A stretch of DNA of 64,000 bases, taken from NCBI RefSeq assembly GCF_044324785.1, contig NZ_CP172127.1. One strand, given 5' to 3'. Within the stretch, counting starts at the first letter, position 1, and the number at the start of each line of letters is the position of its first letter. This DNA is from Escherichia coli (GTDB lineage: Bacteria > Pseudomonadota > Gammaproteobacteria > Enterobacterales > Enterobacteriaceae). Both the position numbers and the translations under genes were made by a program. Positions 8,767 through 15,645 of the stretch are shown here, piece by piece. Under the pieces are notes generated by a model, which was given only the letters and a program-made list of their open reading frames with translations, had not been told where the DNA came from and ran no database searches.

Positions 8767-9487
8767 TGCCGCACGTCAGGATCAACTGATTAAACGGATA
8801 AGAAAACTGCTGGCGCTGAGCCGGAATAACAGTAACCCCCATGAGGCAGGCCAGGCACTTTCCCGTGCTCAGGCGCTGATGCGCAAGCACGGTATCACTG
8901 AACTGGATACTGATATTTCGGTGATAAAGACCTCGTCATCAAAGGGGGCCCCGTCAGAAGCGGAAAAAGTTCCGGTATGGATGGGGCGCCTTATGCATGT
9001 TGTTGCAGAGGCATTCGGATGCCATACATACCTGGACTGGCGTATCACAACCGGAAGGTACTGGCGGCGGGTTGTCATATTTTATGGCTTTGGGGAGCGC
9101 CCGGTTGTGGCGGCGTATGCCTTTGATGTTCTCTGCCGGCAGATGCAAAAGGCAACAAAGGCGTATCTTTCAACCCAGAGCCGGACATTAAAATTGTCAA
9201 CCCGAAGGGCAAGAGCAGCCATGTTTCGTGACGGCTGGGTTTATGGGGTGCGTGATGTGGTGGATGCATTCCCGCTCACGGAAGATGAGACGCGTGTAAT
9301 GAAGACGTGGCTGAAGAGACAGCAATTTGAGGGAATGGCTGCCTTCCGGAATGTTAAGGACTGTAATGGTGGTGATCGTGCACGCTGGCAGGGATACAAC
9401 GAGGGGAAAAAGGCAACGCTGAATCACGGTGTTGGTTCCCGGGATCTGAGACCGGAAAGCCTGATATCGGGCGGAGGTGAGGTATGA
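8756..9487 (+). CDS. Conserved ICE protein, DUF2786-like N-terminus
   Basis: MNADAARQDQLIKRIRKLLALSRNNSNPHEAGQALSRAQALMRKHGI; SD GAGGAAGG before ATG 8756; family by recall. Confidence 0.65.
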   Translation: MNADAARQDQLIKRIRKLLALSRNNSNPHEAGQALSRAQALMRKHGITELDTDISVIKTSSSKGAPSEAEKVPVWMGRLMHVVAEAFGCHTYLDWRITTGRYWRRVVIFYGFGERPVVAAYAFDVLCRQMQKATKAYLSTQSRTLKLSTRRARAAMFRDGWVYGVRDVVDAFPLTEDETRVMKTWLKRQQFEGMAAFRNVKDCNGGDRARWQGYNEGKKATLNHGVGSRDLRPESLISGGGEV

Positions 9488-10062
9488 GTAACAACTTATC
9501 ACAGGCCACCAACGGGCTGTTGATGCAACTGGTGATGGATCTCAAGAGTGGCTATCTGCGGCGATGTGAAGCGCTGGGGCTTTCCCGGGAAGAAATGCAG
9601 ATGCTGCAGGGGCTGAGCATTGAAGAAATTCACTATCTGTCAAATTCAGAAGTGTCGGTGCTGCGGCTGGATATTAACCACAACAATCTTGTGCGCATGT
9701 TGCAGCAGGCGCGGACTGAACAGAAACGTCTGCAGCGAATCGATCGCGCTCTGGCGCTGGGTGGGTCTATCGAACTCATGGCGTTTTATTTTGGTCTTTC
9801 CAGCGTGGATGTGGCTGCGCGGCGTCGTATCTCCGGTATTGATGTTCGTCCCGGAAGGGGGATCACCCTGAGTGACGATGAGAATTCTGAACTCTGGCGG
9901 TTGTGGCAGAAAGCCGGGATCAATGATGTGGAGAGTGTGGATGGGCTGGATGTCATGATGCTTTGTGCTGAACAGATGAACATTCCACTGACGGCCATCT
10001 GGCATGCCGTCAGAGGGTGGCATACAACCGGAAATCCGGATCAGGTAAGGAGTGCGTCATGA
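9484..10062 (+). CDS. Conserved ICE hypothetical protein (SPI-7-type replication/regulatory region protein)
   Basis: 192-aa ORF translationally coupled to flanking genes; family by recall. Confidence 0.65.
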   Translation: MSNNLSQATNGLLMQLVMDLKSGYLRRCEALGLSREEMQMLQGLSIEEIHYLSNSEVSVLRLDINHNNLVRMLQQARTEQKRLQRIDRALALGGSIELMAFYFGLSSVDVAARRRISGIDVRPGRGITLSDDENSELWRLWQKAGINDVESVDGLDVMMLCAEQMNIPLTAIWHAVRGWHTTGNPDQVRSAS

Positions 10063-10307
10063 AGATGACAGAACTGGTTCCCGGAGTGCTGACAAGTCCG
10101 GGCGTCCCTCCCACCAGTCAGCGTAAGGCGGTTGAACTGGTCAATCGCTTCCGTCGTGGAGAGCGGAATTATCATGAACTGAAGGAAAGGGGATTTGGTT
10201 ATTTCAAGATTGATGTTGGTCCTGGCTGGCGGTTACTGAGCCGGAATAAAGGGCTGACCTGGGCCCTGTTGAGTCATGAACGATACAACAACATGAGACT
10301 GAAGTGA
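10059..10307 (+). CDS. Small protein, weak RelE/ParE-toxin-like C-terminal pattern
   Basis: SD AAGGAG before ATG 10059; ...GYFKIDVGPGWRLLSRNKGLTWALLSHERYNN resembles RelE/ParE fold signature only loosely. Confidence 0.5.
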   Translation: MKMTELVPGVLTSPGVPPTSQRKAVELVNRFRRGERNYHELKERGFGYFKIDVGPGWRLLSRNKGLTWALLSHERYNNMRLK

Positions 10308-10316
10308 GGTGGAAAG

Positions 10317-10574
10317 ATGAGTAATGCAGCAAGACTCCAGCTGGGTTTTTCTCCGTTTTCAAAAACTATCGTGCTGGCAAAAATGCGTAATCTTGACGAC
10401 GGAACCAGTCTTCGTGTCGGTAATGATCCCGGTCGCGATGTAACCAATGAGGCGGCTCAGCTTGTCTGGCATCTGGTCATGGCAGAAGGTGGTGAAATTA
10501 TGTGGGAAATGGACGATGGCTCCCGCATGGTGCTGAAGGCTGAAAGTCAGGAGGCAACCAGTGAGCAAGATTAA
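10317..10574 (+). CDS. Hypothetical protein
   Basis: 85-aa ORF in tightly packed same-strand cluster. Confidence 0.45.
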   Translation: MSNAARLQLGFSPFSKTIVLAKMRNLDDGTSLRVGNDPGRDVTNEAAQLVWHLVMAEGGEIMWEMDDGSRMVLKAESQEATSEQD

Positions 10575-10776
10575 CTACCAGGCACTGCGTGAGGCGGCAG
10601 AGAAAGCACCGTGGGGAGACTGGGACTCATATAAACCGCACCGTGGCGCACGAGGTTATGAGGTCCGACTAAGTAAGACGAGTGAGGTTGACGGGGTGTT
10701 GCGGGGTGATGGGGCACAGTTGTTGCAAAAAGCCCAGCGCGGCGCAAAACCGCTGGAAAAACCACTTGCGCACTAA
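10561..10776 (+). CDS. Hypothetical protein
   Basis: 71-aa ORF overlapping neighbours in operon-like arrangement. Confidence 0.45.
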   Translation: MSKINYQALREAAEKAPWGDWDSYKPHRGARGYEVRLSKTSEVDGVLRGDGAQLLQKAQRGAKPLEKPLAH

Positions 10777-10787
10777 AGGAGATTGAT

Positions 10788-11153
10788 ATGGCACTGACGA
10801 AAAAACAACGTGCAGAACTGCGCATGAAGTTCGGCGGTCGCTGCGCTTATTGCGGCTGCGAGCTTGGCGAAAAGTGGCATGCAGACCATGTAAAACCGGT
10901 CATTCGTTTTGCTGGAAATATGCTTCACCAGGACCGTGACGATATATCCAACATGGTTCCGGCATGCCACCCATGCAATCTGCACAAGCATTGCAGTAGC
11001 CTGGAAGATTATCGGCGAATTATCAGTGATGGTCGTCGTGAATTCCTTGCGTCCGGGAAAGGCAAGGCGCTGGTTCGTATGGGATTGGTTGAAATGAAAT
11101 CTGACCCGGTTGTGTTCTGGTTTGAAAAATATCAAGAAGGGGCTACGGCATGA
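10788..11153 (+). CDS. HNH endonuclease
   Basis: CAYCGCELGEKWHADHVKPV ... VPACHPCNLHKH: Cys-box plus His-Asn-His motif. Confidence 0.8.
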   Translation: MALTKKQRAELRMKFGGRCAYCGCELGEKWHADHVKPVIRFAGNMLHQDRDDISNMVPACHPCNLHKHCSSLEDYRRIISDGRREFLASGKGKALVRMGLVEMKSDPVVFWFEKYQEGATA

Positions 11154-11536
11154 CCACTATTACCAAAGAGCGACTGCTGACAATCAAACAGTGGCGCGAA
11201 ACATACGGACCGGGTAGCAACGTTGTCCTTCCAGCAGAAGAAGCGGAAGAACTGGCACGAATTGCTCTGGCATCGCTGGAAGCAAAACCAATAGGTGCAT
11301 TCCACATTGCAGAACAGCAAGTTGACGGCACAAGTGACTACCTCAAGGATGGAGAATGGCCTATTGATAATGGAATTATTGAGGTCTACGCCGCTCCCCC
11401 CGTTCCAGTAGTACCGGAAGAAAAACCAATGCCTAATCCTCTTAGCATGTACGCGGTCGATGCTGTTGCCGCTATTGCAGAGGTGAGAGGCTGGAACGCC
11501 TGTCGTGCCGCCATGCTTCATGGTAAAGGAGAGTGA
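11150..11536 (+). CDS. Hypothetical protein (paralogous N-terminus with 11744-12250)
   Basis: MTTITKERLL...RIALASLEAKP shared with downstream ORF. Confidence 0.55.
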   Translation: MTTITKERLLTIKQWRETYGPGSNVVLPAEEAEELARIALASLEAKPIGAFHIAEQQVDGTSDYLKDGEWPIDNGIIEVYAAPPVPVVPEEKPMPNPLSMYAVDAVAAIAEVRGWNACRAAMLHGKGE

Positions 11537-11537
11537 T

Positions 11538-11747
11538 ATGGCTATTGCCGCAAGTTACACAATGCATCTCTATTGTGACTGCCGCCAGTGTACGGAAGGT
11601 GTATATCCAGTGCCAGACTTCGGTGAGTATATAGGTACGTCATGGGCTGGCTGTGCAAAAGAGGCGCGCAAGGATGGCTGGCGAATAAGCAAAGACAAAA
11701 CACGTGCTTTTGCGCCAGGGCATAAAGTTTTAAGGATTAACAAATGA
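11538..11747 (+). CDS. Small Cys-rich protein (possible zinc-binding)
   Basis: SD AAGGAG before ATG 11538; HLYCDCRQC...C motif. Confidence 0.5.
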   Translation: MAIAASYTMHLYCDCRQCTEGVYPVPDFGEYIGTSWAGCAKEARKDGWRISKDKTRAFAPGHKVLRINK

Positions 11748-12250
11748 CCACTATTACCAGAGAAAACGCGGAAATTAAATCATTCATCACTGGTTTCCTG
11801 AGCGACGCGGCGCACGATAAACAATCGTCAAACAGCCTGCTTGCCAATGTGTTTCGTATCGCACTGGCATCACTGGAAGCAGAGCCAGTTGCGTGGCGAT
11901 ATCGCTACGTGAAAAAAGGCGTTACGGACTCTCAGGGGGAGTCGTGGGTTGGTGACTGGAAATATGTACCGACAAAAGAGGATTGCAACGACAGACCGAA
12001 CTATGAAATTCAGGCGTTATTCACGGCTCAGCCTGTGCCACTGACACAAGAAGTGTTGAATCTGGAGAAGGCCAGGATGCAGTTGCGTGTTTTGTTATCT
12101 GGACCTGTTCCTGCAATCACTCCGATGGCGCATGCCGTGGCAATAAAAGTTGTGCTTGATGCTCTGGATGCGAGTGAGCGGAGGGTGGCTGAACTGGAAC
12201 AGGTCTGCACTGCCGCGGGTATTCGTATCAAAGGGGAACAAGTGAAATGA
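11744..12250 (+). CDS. Hypothetical protein (paralogous N-terminus with 11150-11536)
   Basis: MTTITRENAE...RIALASLEAEP. Confidence 0.55.
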   Translation: MTTITRENAEIKSFITGFLSDAAHDKQSSNSLLANVFRIALASLEAEPVAWRYRYVKKGVTDSQGESWVGDWKYVPTKEDCNDRPNYEIQALFTAQPVPLTQEVLNLEKARMQLRVLLSGPVPAITPMAHAVAIKVVLDALDASERRVAELEQVCTAAGIRIKGEQVK

Positions 12251-12257
12251 ACTGAAA

Positions 12258-12467
12258 ATGCAGACAATTTCGGGTCCTGTGATTATCGACAGTAATGAGG
12301 TGACACAGTTTTACCCGGACCATGAAAGTGGAGGGGAACTCACCGCTGTTGAGTACCTTGCTGACGGGGGAAGAATCACCGCGAGGGTGAGGCACTCTTT
12401 TTATCAGGTTGCTGCGGCACTTGCCGGGGCATGGCGTGCGGATGATGCATCAAAAAGCGGTGGGTGA
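12258..12467 (+). CDS. Hypothetical protein
   Basis: 69-aa ORF ending the small-gene cluster. Confidence 0.4.
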   Translation: MQTISGPVIIDSNEVTQFYPDHESGGELTAVEYLADGGRITARVRHSFYQVAAALAGAWRADDASKSGG

Positions 12468-12728
12468 GGACTGTGCCGGAATGATTGTCTGTTCCGAAGC
12501 TGCTGAGCCGCGACATAAATTTTTTATGTTGCGGTGAAGCAGCCGACAAACGAAGTGCGTCAGCGTGCTGGTTATTAAGGCAATATTTTTTCAGAGGAAC
12601 CGCAATACCGTCGGTATTAACGGTTTACGGGTAATGAAGTGTTTAGCCTGCATCTTTGCCGGGTGCAGTTATAAGCATTTCGGAAACCGTTCCCCGGCGC
12701 AGTCTGCCGGGATTTAAGGAGTTTATTT

Positions 12729-13994
12729 ATGGCGCTACCTGCAGAAAGCCTTATTGCGCATACGCTCAGAAAAATGAAGGCCAGCATGGCAGAGAAAGCC
12801 AGTCGTGAGGACGGGAGGATACGCAGTGGGCTGTTGTTTACCGGCAATGTTCACGATTCGTATCCCCGCAGGCTGTTGCTGGATACGCGCCTTTCTCCCC
12901 TTGATAAAACTGCGTGGATGATGATTCGTCTGCATGCCCTGAATAATGAGGGCGCAGTATTTCCGACGTACGATGAACTGCAGTTACAACTGGCATCTCC
13001 CGGGCGCGGGAAGGCGTCCCGTGAAACAGTGAGCCGGGTGCTGACAATGCTGCGGCTTACGGGCTGGCTGAGTCTGTGTAAGCGGGTCAGGGATGAAAAA
13101 GGGCGGGTCCGGGGGAATATTTACGCCCTGCATGATGAGCCACTGACCTGCTGTGATGCAGAAAAGTTTGACCCACGATACCTGGATATGGTTCTGGATA
13201 CTGTGAGCAGGAGCCGGAACAAGACAATCCGGCACACAGCCAGTGAAGTGCTCAGTGATATCAAAAATGAGCCCGGTATGCGGCATTACCACAGCCATAT
13301 CACTCTGTTTGAATCGCGTATGGGGGCAGCACAGACACCTGGTCAGCTGGCGGCGCGTCAGCGGGTGAACCCGATGGTGAATGAAAACACAGGCAGAGAG
13401 AGTGGTTCGGATTCCGTACATACCCCTGCACCTGTCGTGCAGGTAACCGAACTCAGTGCTCCGTTAACCGAACTCAGTGAAAAACAGGAAATGAGCCCAC
13501 TCAGTTCGGATTCCGTACTTCCTGAAAAATCAGTAACTTATCACTCGGTTCGGAAACCGAACAATTACGTACGTAATATCACACACAGTGTGATTAAAAA
13601 TACGTACGTATTGCCTGAGTCGGTGAAATCGCAAATCAGCGCAGAAGACACGGACATGCTGACAAAACAACTGCAGGCGTTGCCGGAAGAACTGGCAGGT
13701 AGTGTGCTGAGCAGCCTGTTACAGATGCTCAGCAAAAACACGCTCCAGAATCCGGTTGGCTGGATGCTGGCTGTGATGAAACTTGCGCGTGAGGGACGTT
13801 TTAATACGCCGGATATGTCCGTGCATGAATCCCGGTCGCCAGCCCGTGCACCATATCAGCCTGTGTACAACCGTGATGAACGTGAACGTCGTCGCGGGAA
13901 AGTGGCGTCACCTGAAACGGTGAGCAACATTGTCGCAGAATTCCGGGCCAGCCTGAAACGTGCAAATGCTGCCCGTCTGGCGGCGCGTGTGTGA
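12729..13994 (+). CDS. Putative ICE replication initiator (winged-helix Rep-like; SPI-7 STY4528-type family by recall)
   Basis: SD AAGGAG before ATG 12729; N-terminal HTH/winged-helix-like segment; internal peptide repeats coincide with DNA repeats/palindromes; followed immediately by a 36-bp tandem array. Confidence 0.7.
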   Translation: MALPAESLIAHTLRKMKASMAEKASREDGRIRSGLLFTGNVHDSYPRRLLLDTRLSPLDKTAWMMIRLHALNNEGAVFPTYDELQLQLASPGRGKASRETVSRVLTMLRLTGWLSLCKRVRDEKGRVRGNIYALHDEPLTCCDAEKFDPRYLDMVLDTVSRSRNKTIRHTASEVLSDIKNEPGMRHYHSHITLFESRMGAAQTPGQLAARQRVNPMVNENTGRESGSDSVHTPAPVVQVTELSAPLTELSEKQEMSPLSSDSVLPEKSVTYHSVRKPNNYVRNITHSVIKNTYVLPESVKSQISAEDTDMLTKQLQALPEELAGSVLSSLLQMLSKNTLQNPVGWMLAVMKLAREGRFNTPDMSVHESRSPARAPYQPVYNRDERERRRGKVASPETVSNIVAEFRASLKRANAARLAARV

Positions 13995-14008
13995 TGGTTA
14001 AAAGTCAA

Positions 14009-14836
14009 TCTATGGCGCTACTGGCACCATAGTACAAAAAATGAGCGATGGTGCCACTGACACCACGGTATAAAAAATGAGCGATGGTGACGCTGGCACC
14101 ATAGTACAAAAAATAAGCGATGGTGCCACTGGCACCATAGTACAAAAAATGAGCGATGGTGCCACTGGCACCACGGTATAAAAAATGAGCGATGGTGCCA
14201 CTGGCACCACGGTACAAAAAATAAGCGATGGTGCCACTGGCACCACGGTATAAAAAATGAGCGATGGTGCCACTGGCACCACGGTACAAAAAATAAGCGA
14301 TGGTGCCACTGGCACCACGGTACAAAAAATAAGCGATGGTGCCACTGGCACCACGGTACAAAAAACGAACGATGGTGCCACTGGCACCATAGTACAAAAA
14401 ATAAGCGATGGTGCCACTGGCACCACGGTACAAAAAATAAGCGATGGTGCCACTGGCACCACGGTACAAAAAACGAACGATGGTGCCACTGGCACCATAG
14501 TACAAAAAATAAGCGATGGTGCCACTGGCACCATAGTACAAAAAATAAGCGATGGTGCCACTGGCACCACGGTACAAAAAATAAGCGATGGTGCCACTGG
14601 CACCATAGTACAAAAAATGAGCGATGGTGCCACTGGCACCACGGTATAAAAAATGAGCGATGGTGCCACTGGCACCACGGTACAAAAAATAAGCGATGGT
14701 GCCACTGGCACCATAGTACAAAAAATGAGCGATGGTGCCACTGGCACCACGGTATAAAAAATGAGCGATGGTGACGCTGGCACCATAGTACAAAAAATAA
14801 GCGATGGTGCCACTGGCACCATAGTATAAAAACGAA
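14009..14836. repeat. Tandem array of ~22-23 copies of a 36-bp unit, each containing a 17-19-bp palindrome (A)TGGTGCCACTGGCACCA(T) plus an A-rich spacer
   Basis: Directly visible periodicity of 36 bp across ~830 bp with minor unit variants (cggtac/tagtac, ataa/atga/acgaa, gtgacgctg). Confidence 0.95.
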
Positions 14837-14964
14837 CGCAATTCATACGCTCAATCCCGTTAATTTTAAAAGGTTCAAATCTGTTTTCCTGTTGTTGTTA
14901 ATCCGGTTCTTTCTGACGATCTCACACTCAACTGGTGTTATTTCTGGTACTGAGTGGAGGTCAT

Positions 14965-15645
14965 ATGACTGATGAGAAAAAGACTGAACCTGGCGTGTTA
15001 AAAAGCTCCCTGACAATTAATATTCACACTTATTACGCTATTCGGTTGTGGAACGGTCGCAAGCCTGAGACTGGTGCTGATAAGTCGGAACGTCGGCGCA
15101 GGATCATTGGCATGCCCGGGGTTATTTCCCGTGCGGGTATCGCAACAAAAGATTCTGAGAACAATAATCCGTGGGCGGATGAATTTTTGTTCAGCCTTGA
15201 GGAAAAGCTGAATCACTCAAAGCAAAAGATTAATGACCTGGTTGAGCAGTTAAATGATGTTTTACGGGATGTGCCAGGGGATATTTGTATTTCTGAAATA
15301 TCATCAACCAGTCCAGTAAATATTGGTGTGCACAGTCGTTCACCTCTTGGTTACAAATGTGTATGGCTGCTTGTCGGGTACGATGAACTGGTGCTTAAAG
15401 CCTTTCAGGCTTTCCACTATGGACTGATTGCCCGATCACGTCGTGATGAAATACTTAATGCCGGAGGGCATGCTGTACGTCAGATTTGTGCTCTTGCCCA
15501 GGGATATAAAACTGTACCTGCAACGAGGGGTGATATTTCTTCTGGCTCACAAAAAGGAAAAGATGCGATCAGCCGCTATGGCATGCCTGATCCTGACATC
15601 CTTACCGGGAAGAAACGGTCCTCCTTTTCTGCACCGCTGAAATAA
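14965..15645 (+). CDS. Conserved ICE protein (PFL_4669-type family by recall)
   Basis: SD GGAGG before ATG 14965; conserved position before topB in this ICE family. Confidence 0.65.
   Translation: MTDEKKTEPGVLKSSLTINIHTYYAIRLWNGRKPETGADKSERRRRIIGMPGVISRAGIATKDSENNNPWADEFLFSLEEKLNHSKQKINDLVEQLNDVLRDVPGDICISEISSTSPVNIGVHSRSPLGYKCVWLLVGYDELVLKAFQAFHYGLIARSRRDEILNAGGHAVRQICALAQGYKTVPATRGDISSGSQKGKDAISRYGMPDPDILTGKKRSSFSAPLK

Follow-up and report, generated by a model that had tools for sequence, protein, structure and literature searches.

Two neighbouring genes, ORF A and ORF B, in a 64-kb stretch of Escherichia coli DNA (the window, by which we mean the whole stretch analyzed) start alike and share a second short motif further in, and between them lies a gene for a small protein with a cysteine motif. 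An earlier note had taken the two for paralogs next to an HNH endonuclease gene, in a phage-like insertion in an ICE. The locus raises the question of whether this pair arose by duplication in place or was assembled from elsewhere, and what kind of genes have been assembled. Our preferred answer, to which we assign a probability of about 80%, is that an array of lambdoid-type accessory cassettes recombined into an ICE operon, that ORF A and ORF B were acquired independently, that modules were exchanged at short junctions, and that ORF B was fused to a neighbouring gene.

The window is 100% identical to the chromosome of E. coli APEC E19035 and represents a SPI-7-type ICE of that strain. In the identical record, PGAP annotates the backbone parA-dnaB-parB-DUF2857-STY4528-PFL_4669-topB together with an integrase and type IV transfer genes, the combination that defines SPI-7/ICEclc-type elements, and the surroundings of the array as dnaB-PI, ParB, DUF2857, STY4528, PFL_4669, topoisomerase III, STY4534, ssb and PilL. 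The genes of the partition-replication module of the SPI-7, PAPI-1 and ICEclc family (parA, dnaB-PI, parB, DUF2786, DUF2857, STY4528, PFL_4669, topB, STY4534 and ssb) also flank the cluster in the window, but the cluster itself has no place in that module and was added specifically in E. coli. One locus of the module in ICEclc, parA-shi, arrests growth in transfer-competent cells (PMC6812849).

The backbone order of the window recurs at 18 loci from seven other genera (Kluyvera, Erwinia, Edwardsiella, Chimaeribacter, Mixta, Serratia and Xenorhabdus). The ParE-like gene lies directly 3' of DUF2857 in 17 of these 18 ICE relatives, and the STY4528 gene is kept in all of them. The distance between the two genes is about 70-140 bp in the 17 relatives, the 18th having no ParE-like gene, whereas it is 2.4 kb in the window; we therefore regard 10317-12467 as an insertion (Table 1). 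All genes of this interval, the DUF7446 gene among them, are missing from each of the 18 relatives, and every one of them matches a PHROG family. Within E. coli, the ParE-like/STY4528 slot of other ICE variants holds different PHROG-type genes, including a Mom-like DNA modification gene in one variant. Genes of the MTTIT family, to which ORF A and ORF B belong, are found in six sampled slot variants (window/5CRE51, L002, L003, L007, L008 and L009), with two copies in the window and two in L007, and are missing from NC101-type ICE variants. The idea of a phage-like insertion in the ICE backbone is thus supported. Nor is the cluster a conserved core of the family: it is present in 0 of 18 relatives from other genera, and although 35 of 5,426 E. 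coli genomes carry the STY4528 gene at ≥95% identity, the full arrangement occurs in four. Between positions 10226 and 12060 the window and strain 5CRE51 differ at a single site, and their flanks differ by 5-14%, which indicates that this block of about 1.8 kb was exchanged recently between two ICE lineages. Base composition gave no usable marker of the insertion, since its GC content (48-53%) is not clearly separated from that of the backbone (53-57%). A search of the + strand from 10000 to 12700 found no sigma-70-like promoter or terminator, and an Rfam scan of 9000-15500 returned a single spurious miRNA match, in a tandem repeat.

Table 1. Features of the inserted array and its backbone borders (window coordinates)
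Feature	Coordinates	Strand	Remarks
ParE-like toxin-domain gene	10059..10307	+	ICE backbone, left border of the insertion; Pfam PF24732, 5.3e-17
DUF7446 gene	10317..10574	+	First gene of the array; Pfam PF24233, 1.7e-15; phrog_1578, 2e-31
Ead/Ea22-like gene remnant	10561..10776	+	Ea22-like N-terminal part only (MSKINYQALREAAEKA...)
C-terminal remnant of another gene	10676..10786	+	Ends ...KGD*; PGAP pseudogene, 'missing N-terminus'
Gene-boundary junction, copy 1	10774..10792	+	TAAAGGAGATTGATATGGC (Shine-Dalgarno, stop, start)
HNH endonuclease cassette, 121 aa	10788..11153	+	Pfam PF01844, phrog_2118
ORF A, 128 aa	11150..11536	+	Leader, core, Pro-rich linker, GWNACRAAML helix
In-frame junction RIALASLEAKP, copy 1	11258..11290	+	End of leader helix 2
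Gene-boundary junction, copy 2	11524..11542	+	TAAAGGAGAGTGATATGGC; ...KGE* of ORF A, Shine-Dalgarno, next start
CxCxxC mini-protein, 69 aa	11538..11747	+	Putative small zinc-binding protein; phrog_926
ORF B (168 aa, 11744-12250), phage-type part, residues 1-104	11744..12055	+	Leader B, junction, core PVAWRYRYVKKG...ALFTAQPVP
In-frame junction RIALASLEAEP, copy 2	11855..11887	+	
ORF B tail, last 64 aa	12056..12250	+	From a separate 71-aa gene of related ICEs
69-aa gene	12258..12467	+	Last gene of the array; phrog_5994, 3.7e-24
STY4528-family island replication protein	12729..13994	+	ICE backbone, right border of the insertion; PGAP name

The HNH gene, ORF A, the 69-aa ORF and ORF B are all present on the + strand, and overlapping stop and start codons (ATGA at 11150-11153 and at 11744-11747) join the HNH gene to ORF A and the mini-protein gene to ORF B. 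The nuclease had been named correctly: it scores 28.9 bits against PF01844 (cut-off 21.4) and 3.4e-56 against phrog_2118. Upstream of it lies gene debris. The Ead_Ea22 model (Pfam PF13935) covers only residues 2-22 of the fragment that starts at 10561, with 26.2 bits against a cut-off of 27, PGAP annotates 10561..10776 as incomplete, and its homology to the intact 244-aa gene of L002 and L003 ends at 10599. The mini-protein matches phrog_926 over its entire length (7.8e-37; residues 1-69 align with positions 1-69 of a 69-position profile) and belongs to a family of 47 clusters whose named members are all from Enterobacterales. To call it Cys-rich was generous given four cysteines in 69 aa, yet the CxCxxC motif behind that label is real: C13, C15 and C18 are invariant over 18 aligned family members. 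As judged by eye, H63 is present in all full-length members and is lost in the two rows whose C-termini diverge; the fourth cysteine, C40, is not conserved among the aligned members. The last gene of the array also occurs in the E. coli ICE variants L002, L003, L007 and L008 and is missing in other genera.

ORF A and ORF B are homologous, as both match the same PHROG families: phrog_660 (2.7e-21 for ORF A and 1.6e-28 for ORF B), phrog_60 (4e-28 and 7.3e-13), phrog_5117 (3.1e-22 and 2.7e-08) and phrog_3323 (3.2e-22 and 1.8e-05), all of which we take to be phage proteins of unknown function. BLASTP aligns the two with 30 identities in 106 positions (28%, E = 3e-4). Both carry MTTIT(K/R)E and RIALASLEA(K/E)P, so that a shared N-terminal module exists, but 'near-identical' is too strong a description: identity is concentrated in two islands, MTTIT-E (20 nt, 95%) and RIALASLEA-P (33 nt, 82%), with some 30 unrelated residues between them. 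The DNA of each island occurs exactly twice in the window, against an expectation of 0 from 100 shuffles.

Each of the two genes is far closer to genes elsewhere than to the other. The N-terminal ~126 residues of DUF551 or 'Eaa' prophage proteins of 200-223 aa (e.g., YfdS-type, PF04448) match ORF A at 96-98% identity, as do 128-aa forms, which are common (a cluster of 212 sequences). Unlike the DUF551 proteins, ORF A ends ...AMLHGKGE*, before the DUF551 domain (DGWISCSERMP...HWMPLPEPP), and alignment indicates that it is a natural, DUF551-less short form of these proteins. The core of ORF B shares 87-94% identity with many prophage proteins, and its DNA is 92% identical to the core of a gene in L002 in which the leader of ORF A and the core of ORF B form one gene; at this point the window has 562 extra bp between the two junction copies. 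The same combination as one gene is found in P0193. The tail of ORF B has another source. In related ICEs it corresponds to an independent 71-aa gene, MRKISGMLNLEKARMQ...GIRIKGEQVK (L002 6280-6495, L003 6229-6444, L007/L008 3807-4022), and the tail matches no PHROG. ORF B is a chimera of a phage-type leader and core fused in frame to a resident 71-aa ICE gene. The contrast between a shared N-terminus and divergent C-termini is a true, family-wide mosaic pattern, but the divergent end of ORF B was acquired with the adjoining ICE gene and does not stem from variation in specificity.

There is nothing unusual about ORF A and ORF B within their family, a huge and much-shuffled set of small lambda-type phage accessory genes with at least 1,262 clusters at 50% identity (E ≤ 1e-3). 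Family members begin with a two-helix leader ending in RIALASLEAEP, followed by a beta core of 29-45 aa, of which many unrelated versions exist. A proline linker of the form (Y/F)xAPPxP and a helical tail come next, and some members have a further C-terminal domain, which can be DUF551, a dATP/dGTP pyrophosphohydrolase or another domain; Pfam partners in the top 150 members are DUF551 (44), dATP-dGTP_PPHyd (5) and Ead_Ea22 (3). Twenty-five leader types and 16 core types were seen in 52 combinations, with the ORF A leader on all 16 cores, in a tally that is biased because ORF A and ORF B served as the queries for collecting the proteins. Leaders and cores reassort freely across the family, and modules are swapped at short conserved junctions, namely the in-frame ALASLEAEP and the gene boundaries. 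The ALASLEAEP core junction, CTGGCATCGCTGGAAGC, is kept at the protein level, eight of its 12 variable DNA sites being third codon positions. At the gene boundaries, '...KGE-stop' doubles as Shine-Dalgarno sequence for the gene that follows, whose start is 'ATGACCACTATTACC'; the two copies in the window constitute direct repeat D4 and are 95% identical. Module exchange at such short junctions is the reason why the neighbouring ORF A and ORF B share only those islands.

Relatives of the cassettes occur in phages and phage-like plasmids. An IncY (presumably P1-like) plasmid carries ORF A together with the Cys-motif gene at 96% identity, and in a lambdoid phage the Cys-motif gene and an MTTIT gene after it also form a pair. 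The HNH gene recurs as a gene-sized block, 97% identical, in Stx phage ArgO145, where it stands beside Ea22-like genes, and in the phage-like plasmid ESBL242, with differing flanks. We compare the array with the accessory genes of lambdoid early regions, that is, the exo-xis region of lambda (ea22, ea8.5, orf60a/61/63/73), the 'ea' genes of P22 and the Ea22 proteins with DUF551 of Stx phages. Like these, the array genes are small, tightly packed and co-directional, and they are mosaic in the extreme, DUF551 being one of the portable domains (PMC10834534); in phages, the cluster genes adjoin Ead/Ea22-like genes, and an Ea22-like N-terminal fragment lies within the array. The differences are that the array belongs to an ICE replication operon and not to the pL operon of a phage, that neither ORF A nor ORF B matches Ead_Ea22 PF13935 at E ≤ 1, and that none of the characterized exo-xis proteins is homologous to them by sequence. 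Exo-xis genes influence the lysis-lysogeny decision (PMC7093339, PMC3824215), Ea22 is itself mosaic with a portable DUF551 (PMC10834534), and for DUF551 only indirect phenotypes are described (PMC4776307, PMC10834534).

Searches for function yielded little. Single-sequence and profile searches with ORF A, ORF B and the Cys-motif protein gave nothing usable against Pfam, NCBIfam, PADLOC and PDB; in particular, neither ORF has a Pfam match to DUF551 PF04448, and PADLOC returned no match for ORF B or the Cys-motif protein. A marginal PADLOC hit of ORF A to PglZ (E = 0.0016, 14.9 bits) was taken as chance, and the HNH protein shows only generic similarity there, to PtuB-type HNH domains. AlphaFold2, run on both ORFs with custom-built alignments, gave a model of ORF A with a mean pLDDT of 71, a pTM of 0.35 and a low-confidence core, and a poor model of ORF B (pLDDT 53.6); both models suggest a layout of helix-helix, strands, then helix. 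Foldseek with the ORF A model found nothing at E ≤ 0.001 in PDB and BFVD, its best matches being uncharacterized phage proteins that are also sequence homologs. In the 26.6 kb of L001 that surround the cluster, every annotated gene has another identity, and no sign of a diversity-generating retroelement or shufflon was seen there.

Four other accounts of the pair and its surroundings were weighed. Local tandem duplication followed by divergence in place might be suggested by two co-directional genes, 594 bp apart, whose start and junction motifs agree, but we reject it as scarcely credible: likeness at the DNA level is confined to the 20-nt and 33-nt islands, each gene has far nearer relatives elsewhere, against 28% identity between the two, and leader A with core B makes up a single gene in L002 and P0193. 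The array may, on the other hand, be decaying phage DNA, hitchhiking cargo without a role for ICE or host, because its left part (10561-10786) consists of two clear gene remnants and PGAP calls ORF A a pseudogene fragment and, in 5CRE51, ORF B as well. The rarity of the arrangement and the accidental nature of the ORF B fusion point the same way. We nevertheless hold this to be unlikely, given that ORF A, the Cys-motif ORF, the HNH gene and ORF B are intact with coupled starts and Shine-Dalgarno sequences, and that the 128-aa form of ORF A is widespread; the PGAP calls are probably over-calls that reflect partial matches to longer reference proteins and not disruptions.

The HNH gene could itself be the agent of movement, if a homing endonuclease cut HNH-less alleles and repair copied it, along with the adjoining ORF A and Cys-motif gene, into phages, phage-plasmids and the ICE. 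As in free-standing phage HNH homing endonucleases, the gene is small and stand-alone and may show presence/absence polymorphism between otherwise similar loci: it is a gene-sized cassette bounded by conserved junctions, present in the window, L005 and L011 and missing at the same junction in L004 and L010 (where the flanks also differ), and it lies within the near-identical 1.8-kb block that two ICE lineages share although their flanks have diverged. However, neighbouring cassettes that contain no nuclease move just as readily, the homing role is putative with no target site found, phages use small HNH proteins in many other ways, and matches in defence and annotation libraries are generic HNH similarity far under cut-offs; we consider this explanation rather improbable. 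Equally doubtful in our estimation is the proposal that the family consists of diversified binders, in which a scaffold of helical leader and proline linker would present a hypervariable core of about 30-45 aa to different host or competitor targets (e.g., in anti-defence or exclusion) and the ICE would keep such genes to establish itself in new hosts. Conserved flanks around a core with at least 16 unrelated versions, the protein-level conservation of the junction, the recurrence of MTTIT-family genes in the slot and the Mom-like gene in one variant are consistent with it. Against these stand the lack of likeness to known defence or anti-defence proteins in PADLOC, the core without a confident fold, the NC101-type variants that do without the family, and the C-terminal divergence of ORF B as a fusion accident; moreover, recombination at conserved linkers yields the same pattern without selection for specificity. 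In its widest form, the MTTIT/ALASLEAEP scaffold with its hypervariable core would furnish a pool of target-specific binders that modulate hosts or defences, with the ParE-like/STY4528 slot as a dedicated 'establishment' locus, which we find still harder to credit. Such a pool may be common to phages, phage-plasmids and ICEs, and the slot may be stocked from it.

We favor the recombined lambdoid cassette array. In all likelihood the array consists of small accessory cassettes like those that lambda, P22 and Stx phages carry in their 'ea'/exo-xis early regions; they were recombined into an E. coli SPI-7/ICEclc-type element, in its partition-replication operon between the ParE-like and STY4528 genes, and ORF A and ORF B are two separate acquisitions from one very large mosaic prophage family. 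The array genes would share a transcript with the ICE parA-dnaB-parB...STY4528 operon and be translationally coupled to it, in keeping with the overlapping start and stop codons and with a + strand that shows no promoter or terminator here. Provided that they have a function, they might, by analogy, encode small binding proteins, expressed early, that modulate either host or element upon ICE activation or entry into a new cell. Ea22, Orf63 and YfdS-type proteins are reported to modulate likewise for phages.

What the analysis mainly clarifies is annotation: seeming local duplicates are independently recombined cassettes of a very common, uncharacterized prophage family, and one of the two 'paralogs' is a chimera with an ICE gene. 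Should the family prove functional, the natural reassortment of leaders and cores would be a useful map of its modules. The locus also offers a clean, datable case in which a SPI-7-type ICE received genes from the pool of lambdoid phages and phage-plasmids, at one fixed slot of the replication operon that is empty in other genera and differs in its contents among E. coli lineages.

The window matches the chromosome of E. coli O2:K1:H5 APEC E19035 at 100% identity, and the PGAP annotation around the cluster (see table) is that of an SPI-7-type integrative conjugative element (ICE), with the order integrase, parA, dnaB-PI, parB, DUF2786, DUF2857, ParE-like, DUF7446, and the cluster, followed by the STY4528-family replication protein, PFL_4669, topoisomerase III, STY4534, ssb, and pilL. 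With the DUF2857 protein as query and one genome per species, we retrieved 18 related loci from Kluyvera, Erwinia, Edwardsiella, Chimaeribacter, Mixta, Serratia, and Xenorhabdus. Seventeen share the order ParB, DUF2857, ParE-like, STY4528, PFL_4669, TopB, and the gap between their ParE-like and STY4528 genes is ∼70–140 bp, compared with 2.4 kb in the window; the Serratia locus is without the ParE-like gene and has ∼125 bp between DUF2857 and STY4528. DUF7446, the Ea22 fragment, the HNH gene, ORF A, the Cys-motif gene, ORF B or its tail, and the last 69-aa gene are found in none of the 18. This distribution, together with the varying contents of the same slot in E. coli, shows that the cluster was inserted into the backbone of the ICE and supports the earlier note's reading of it as phage-like. 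The cluster is therefore not a housekeeping core conserved across the family: the relatives lack it, and the E. coli variants fill the slot differently.

Features of the cluster, its surroundings, and comparable E. coli ICEs
Feature	Position	Strand	Remark
ParE-like toxin-domain gene	10059–10307		
Block shared with the 5CRE51 ICE	10226–12060		1.8 kb, ParE-like end to ORF B fusion point
Two gene remnants	10561–10786		
HNH endonuclease	10788–11153	+	121 aa; passes Pfam threshold
ORF A	11150–11536	+	128 aa
ORF A, PGAP pseudogene call	11150–11284		
Cys-motif ORF	11538–11747	+	69 aa
ORF B	11744–12250	+	168 aa
STY4528 gene	12729–13994		
Tandem repeat	14005–14850		∼23 copies of a 36-bp unit
5CRE51 ORF B, PGAP pseudogene call	L030 2345–2494		
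ECCNB12-2 ICE, MTTIT/MITIT paralogs	L007 2514–3758		132 and 137 aa
SI-NP020 ICE, XF1762-family protein	L009 3800–4291		phrog_1384, 4.4e-39

The ParE-like gene directly follows DUF2857 in 17 of the 18 relatives and has no obvious antitoxin gene adjoining it. DUF7446 then follows in several E. coli variants (the window, 5CRE51, L002, and L003) and is absent from the other genera. Directly downstream of the STY4528 gene lies the tandem repeat, each unit of which contains a palindrome, (A/G)TGGTGCCAGTGGCACCAT, then CGCTYATTTT. This repeat is a candidate for an iteron array or for the origin of the ICE; PGAP places a "hypothetical protein" over it, and among the ICE relatives the gene annotated in the corresponding place varies in length and sometimes in strand.

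The four ORFs lie where the earlier note had placed them, Pfam bears out the HNH identity, and each start either overlaps the preceding stop (ATGA) or has a Shine-Dalgarno sequence ahead of it. Both ORF A and ORF B carry the MTTIT(K/R)E start and, at residues 37–48, RIALASLEA(K/E)P, and the DNA of each motif has exactly two occurrences in the 64 kb of the window, where shuffles predict none. The "near-identical" module does not hold up: BLASTP aligns 106 residues of the two proteins with an identity of 28% (E = 3e-4), and their DNA matches only in one 20-nt and one 33-nt island. Despite this low identity the two are homologous, because they match the same PHROG families (660, 60, 5117, and 3323). 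AlphaFold2 gives both the same layout, namely two leader helices, the second ending in RIALASLEA, then short strands, a proline linker, and C-terminal helices, with moderate confidence for ORF A (pLDDT 71; 87–89 in the 90–124 helix) and poor confidence for ORF B (53.6). The mini-protein between them is "Cys-rich" only in a limited sense: it has four cysteines, of which the CxCxxC triplet is invariant in 18 aligned family members; His63 is retained by all full-length members in an alignment judged by eye.

Over its whole length ORF A is 96–98% identical to the first ∼126 residues of 200–223-aa "DUF551 domain-containing / Eaa" proteins and equally similar to common 128-aa forms (one cluster holds 212 sequences). 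Since such forms are common and divergence from the DUF551 proteins begins immediately past GWNACRAAML(Q/H)GK, ORF A is the natural DUF551-less short form and not a broken gene. PGAP marks only the first 45–50 codons of ORF A and of the 5CRE51 ORF B, as "incomplete" pseudogenes; both are intact ORFs, and the calls are probably over-calls from partial matches to longer or differently assembled mosaic references. ORF B has exact relatives in a few assemblies only. Similarity to many prophage proteins extends over its first ∼104 residues (core PVAWRYRYVKKG...ALFTAQPVP, 87–94% identical), and its last 64 residues form an independent 71-aa gene in four other E. coli ICEs (L002, L003, L007, and L008). 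ORF B thus arose by the joining, in frame, of a phage-type leader and core to a gene already resident in the ICE. The comparison with L002 is decisive: it carries a single gene joining the ORF A leader to the ORF B core, and in the window two copies of the RIALASLEA junction enclose an additional 562 bases. With closer relatives of each in prophages and plasmids, ORF A and ORF B are mosaic cassettes and not a local duplication, and the reading of a duplicated, variable-specificity module is not supported as stated.

The family shows the same pattern. An exhaustive HMMER search (E ≤ 1e-3) gave 1,262 clusters at 50% identity; the best 150 are 94 to 408 aa long and match over segments that vary, and Pfam finds DUF551 in 44 of them, dATP/dGTP pyrophosphohydrolase in 5, and Ead_Ea22 in 3. 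Alignments show a conserved leader (MTTITKERL...ELARIALASLEAEP), a core of 29–45 aa in many unrelated versions, a conserved (L/V)YAAPPxPVVP linker followed by a variable one, and a conserved GWNACRAAML helix followed by variable C-termini. Among 281 retrieved proteins with the leader-junction-core unit, a sample biased by the queries, 25 leader types and 16 core types form 52 combinations, the ORF A leader being paired with all 16 cores, which demonstrates reassortment. At the in-frame junction the DNA has a core that hardly varies, CTGGCATCGCTGGAAGC; third codon positions nevertheless account for 8 of the 12 variable sites of the junction, which is therefore constrained as protein too. A 19-nt sequence, TAAAGGAGAnTGATATGGC, forms the gene boundary ahead of both the HNH and Cys-motif genes, and the recurrent "...KGE-stop" C-termini are the Shine-Dalgarno of the next gene. 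This is the classical lambdoid mosaic, and earlier work has described Ea22 proteins that are mosaic and carry a portable DUF551 domain (PMC10834534). Two ORF A-like database proteins (P0011 and P0007) extend ∼40–70 residues upstream with CxC...CxxC motifs, either a fused zinc-ribbon cassette or a mis-called start.

The donors are the pool of lambdoid phages and phage-plasmids. An IncY (presumably P1-like) plasmid carries ORF A together with the Cys-motif gene at 96% identity; a second phage-like plasmid (typed IncHI1B) has ORF A at 97.8% identity, in the order Cys-motif gene, ORF A. Stx phage ArgO145 carries the HNH gene and the first 22 nt of ORF A at 97% identity, adjoining Ead/Ea22-like genes, and a lambdoid phage has a Cys-motif gene followed by an MTTIT gene downstream of its replication genes. 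Pieces of the cluster occur in about half of complete E. coli genomes, in up to nine places per genome. The block shared with 5CRE51 differs at one site, whereas its flanks are 5–14% diverged between the two ICE lineages (34 of 249 sites in the ParE-like gene on the left; 12–13 sites each in the ORF B tail and the last gene on the right), and its right breakpoint is the ORF B fusion point. This contrast indicates that the block moved recently between lineages by recombination.

A STY4528 relative is present in 109 of 5,426 complete E. coli genomes (at ≥95% identity in 35), and only four genomes have ORF A, the Cys-motif gene, and ORF B in the full arrangement. In L002 and L003 the slot is filled by an Ea22-like gene that is intact (244 aa), one phage gene of 171 aa, a single MITITK gene, and two further small genes; in L007 and L008 by several Ea22 fragments together with small phage genes; in L009 by one MTTIT gene and a gene for Mom-like DNA modification; in NC101-type elements by two genes whose N-termini resemble Ea22 (one of them is annotated ead/Ea22-like); and in RM11911 by one small gene. 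Nearly all of these genes match PHROG families. The L007 paralogs lie on either side of a 73-aa gene and a zinc-ribbon-like 65-aa protein (CxxC...CxxC); the layout is the same with different cassettes, and thus two paralogs flanking a small Cys protein recur in this slot. The XF1762-family protein of the more distant L009 matches a phage Mom-like family and could possibly serve in anti-restriction.

No promoter-like or terminator-like sites were found on the + strand within the array, which, with the coupled starts, fits co-transcription with the ICE partition-replication operon. The corresponding module of ICEclc includes parA-shi, which causes growth arrest of transfer-competent cells (PMC6812849). 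Neither fold searches nor any profile library gave a match assigning function to the cluster proteins. If the exo-xis genes (PMC7093339, PMC3824215) and the YfdQRST cluster (PMC4776307) are a guide, the products would most likely be small early binding proteins that modulate host or element. That the array is hitchhiking debris is a serious alternative, favored by the two gene remnants just ahead of the HNH gene. The earlier observation is confirmed in part. As a mosaic lambdoid accessory cassette, the feature is of an ordinary kind with ample precedent. The modest new point is that such mosaic lambdoid cassettes populate one fixed slot of an SPI-7-type ICE in E. coli.
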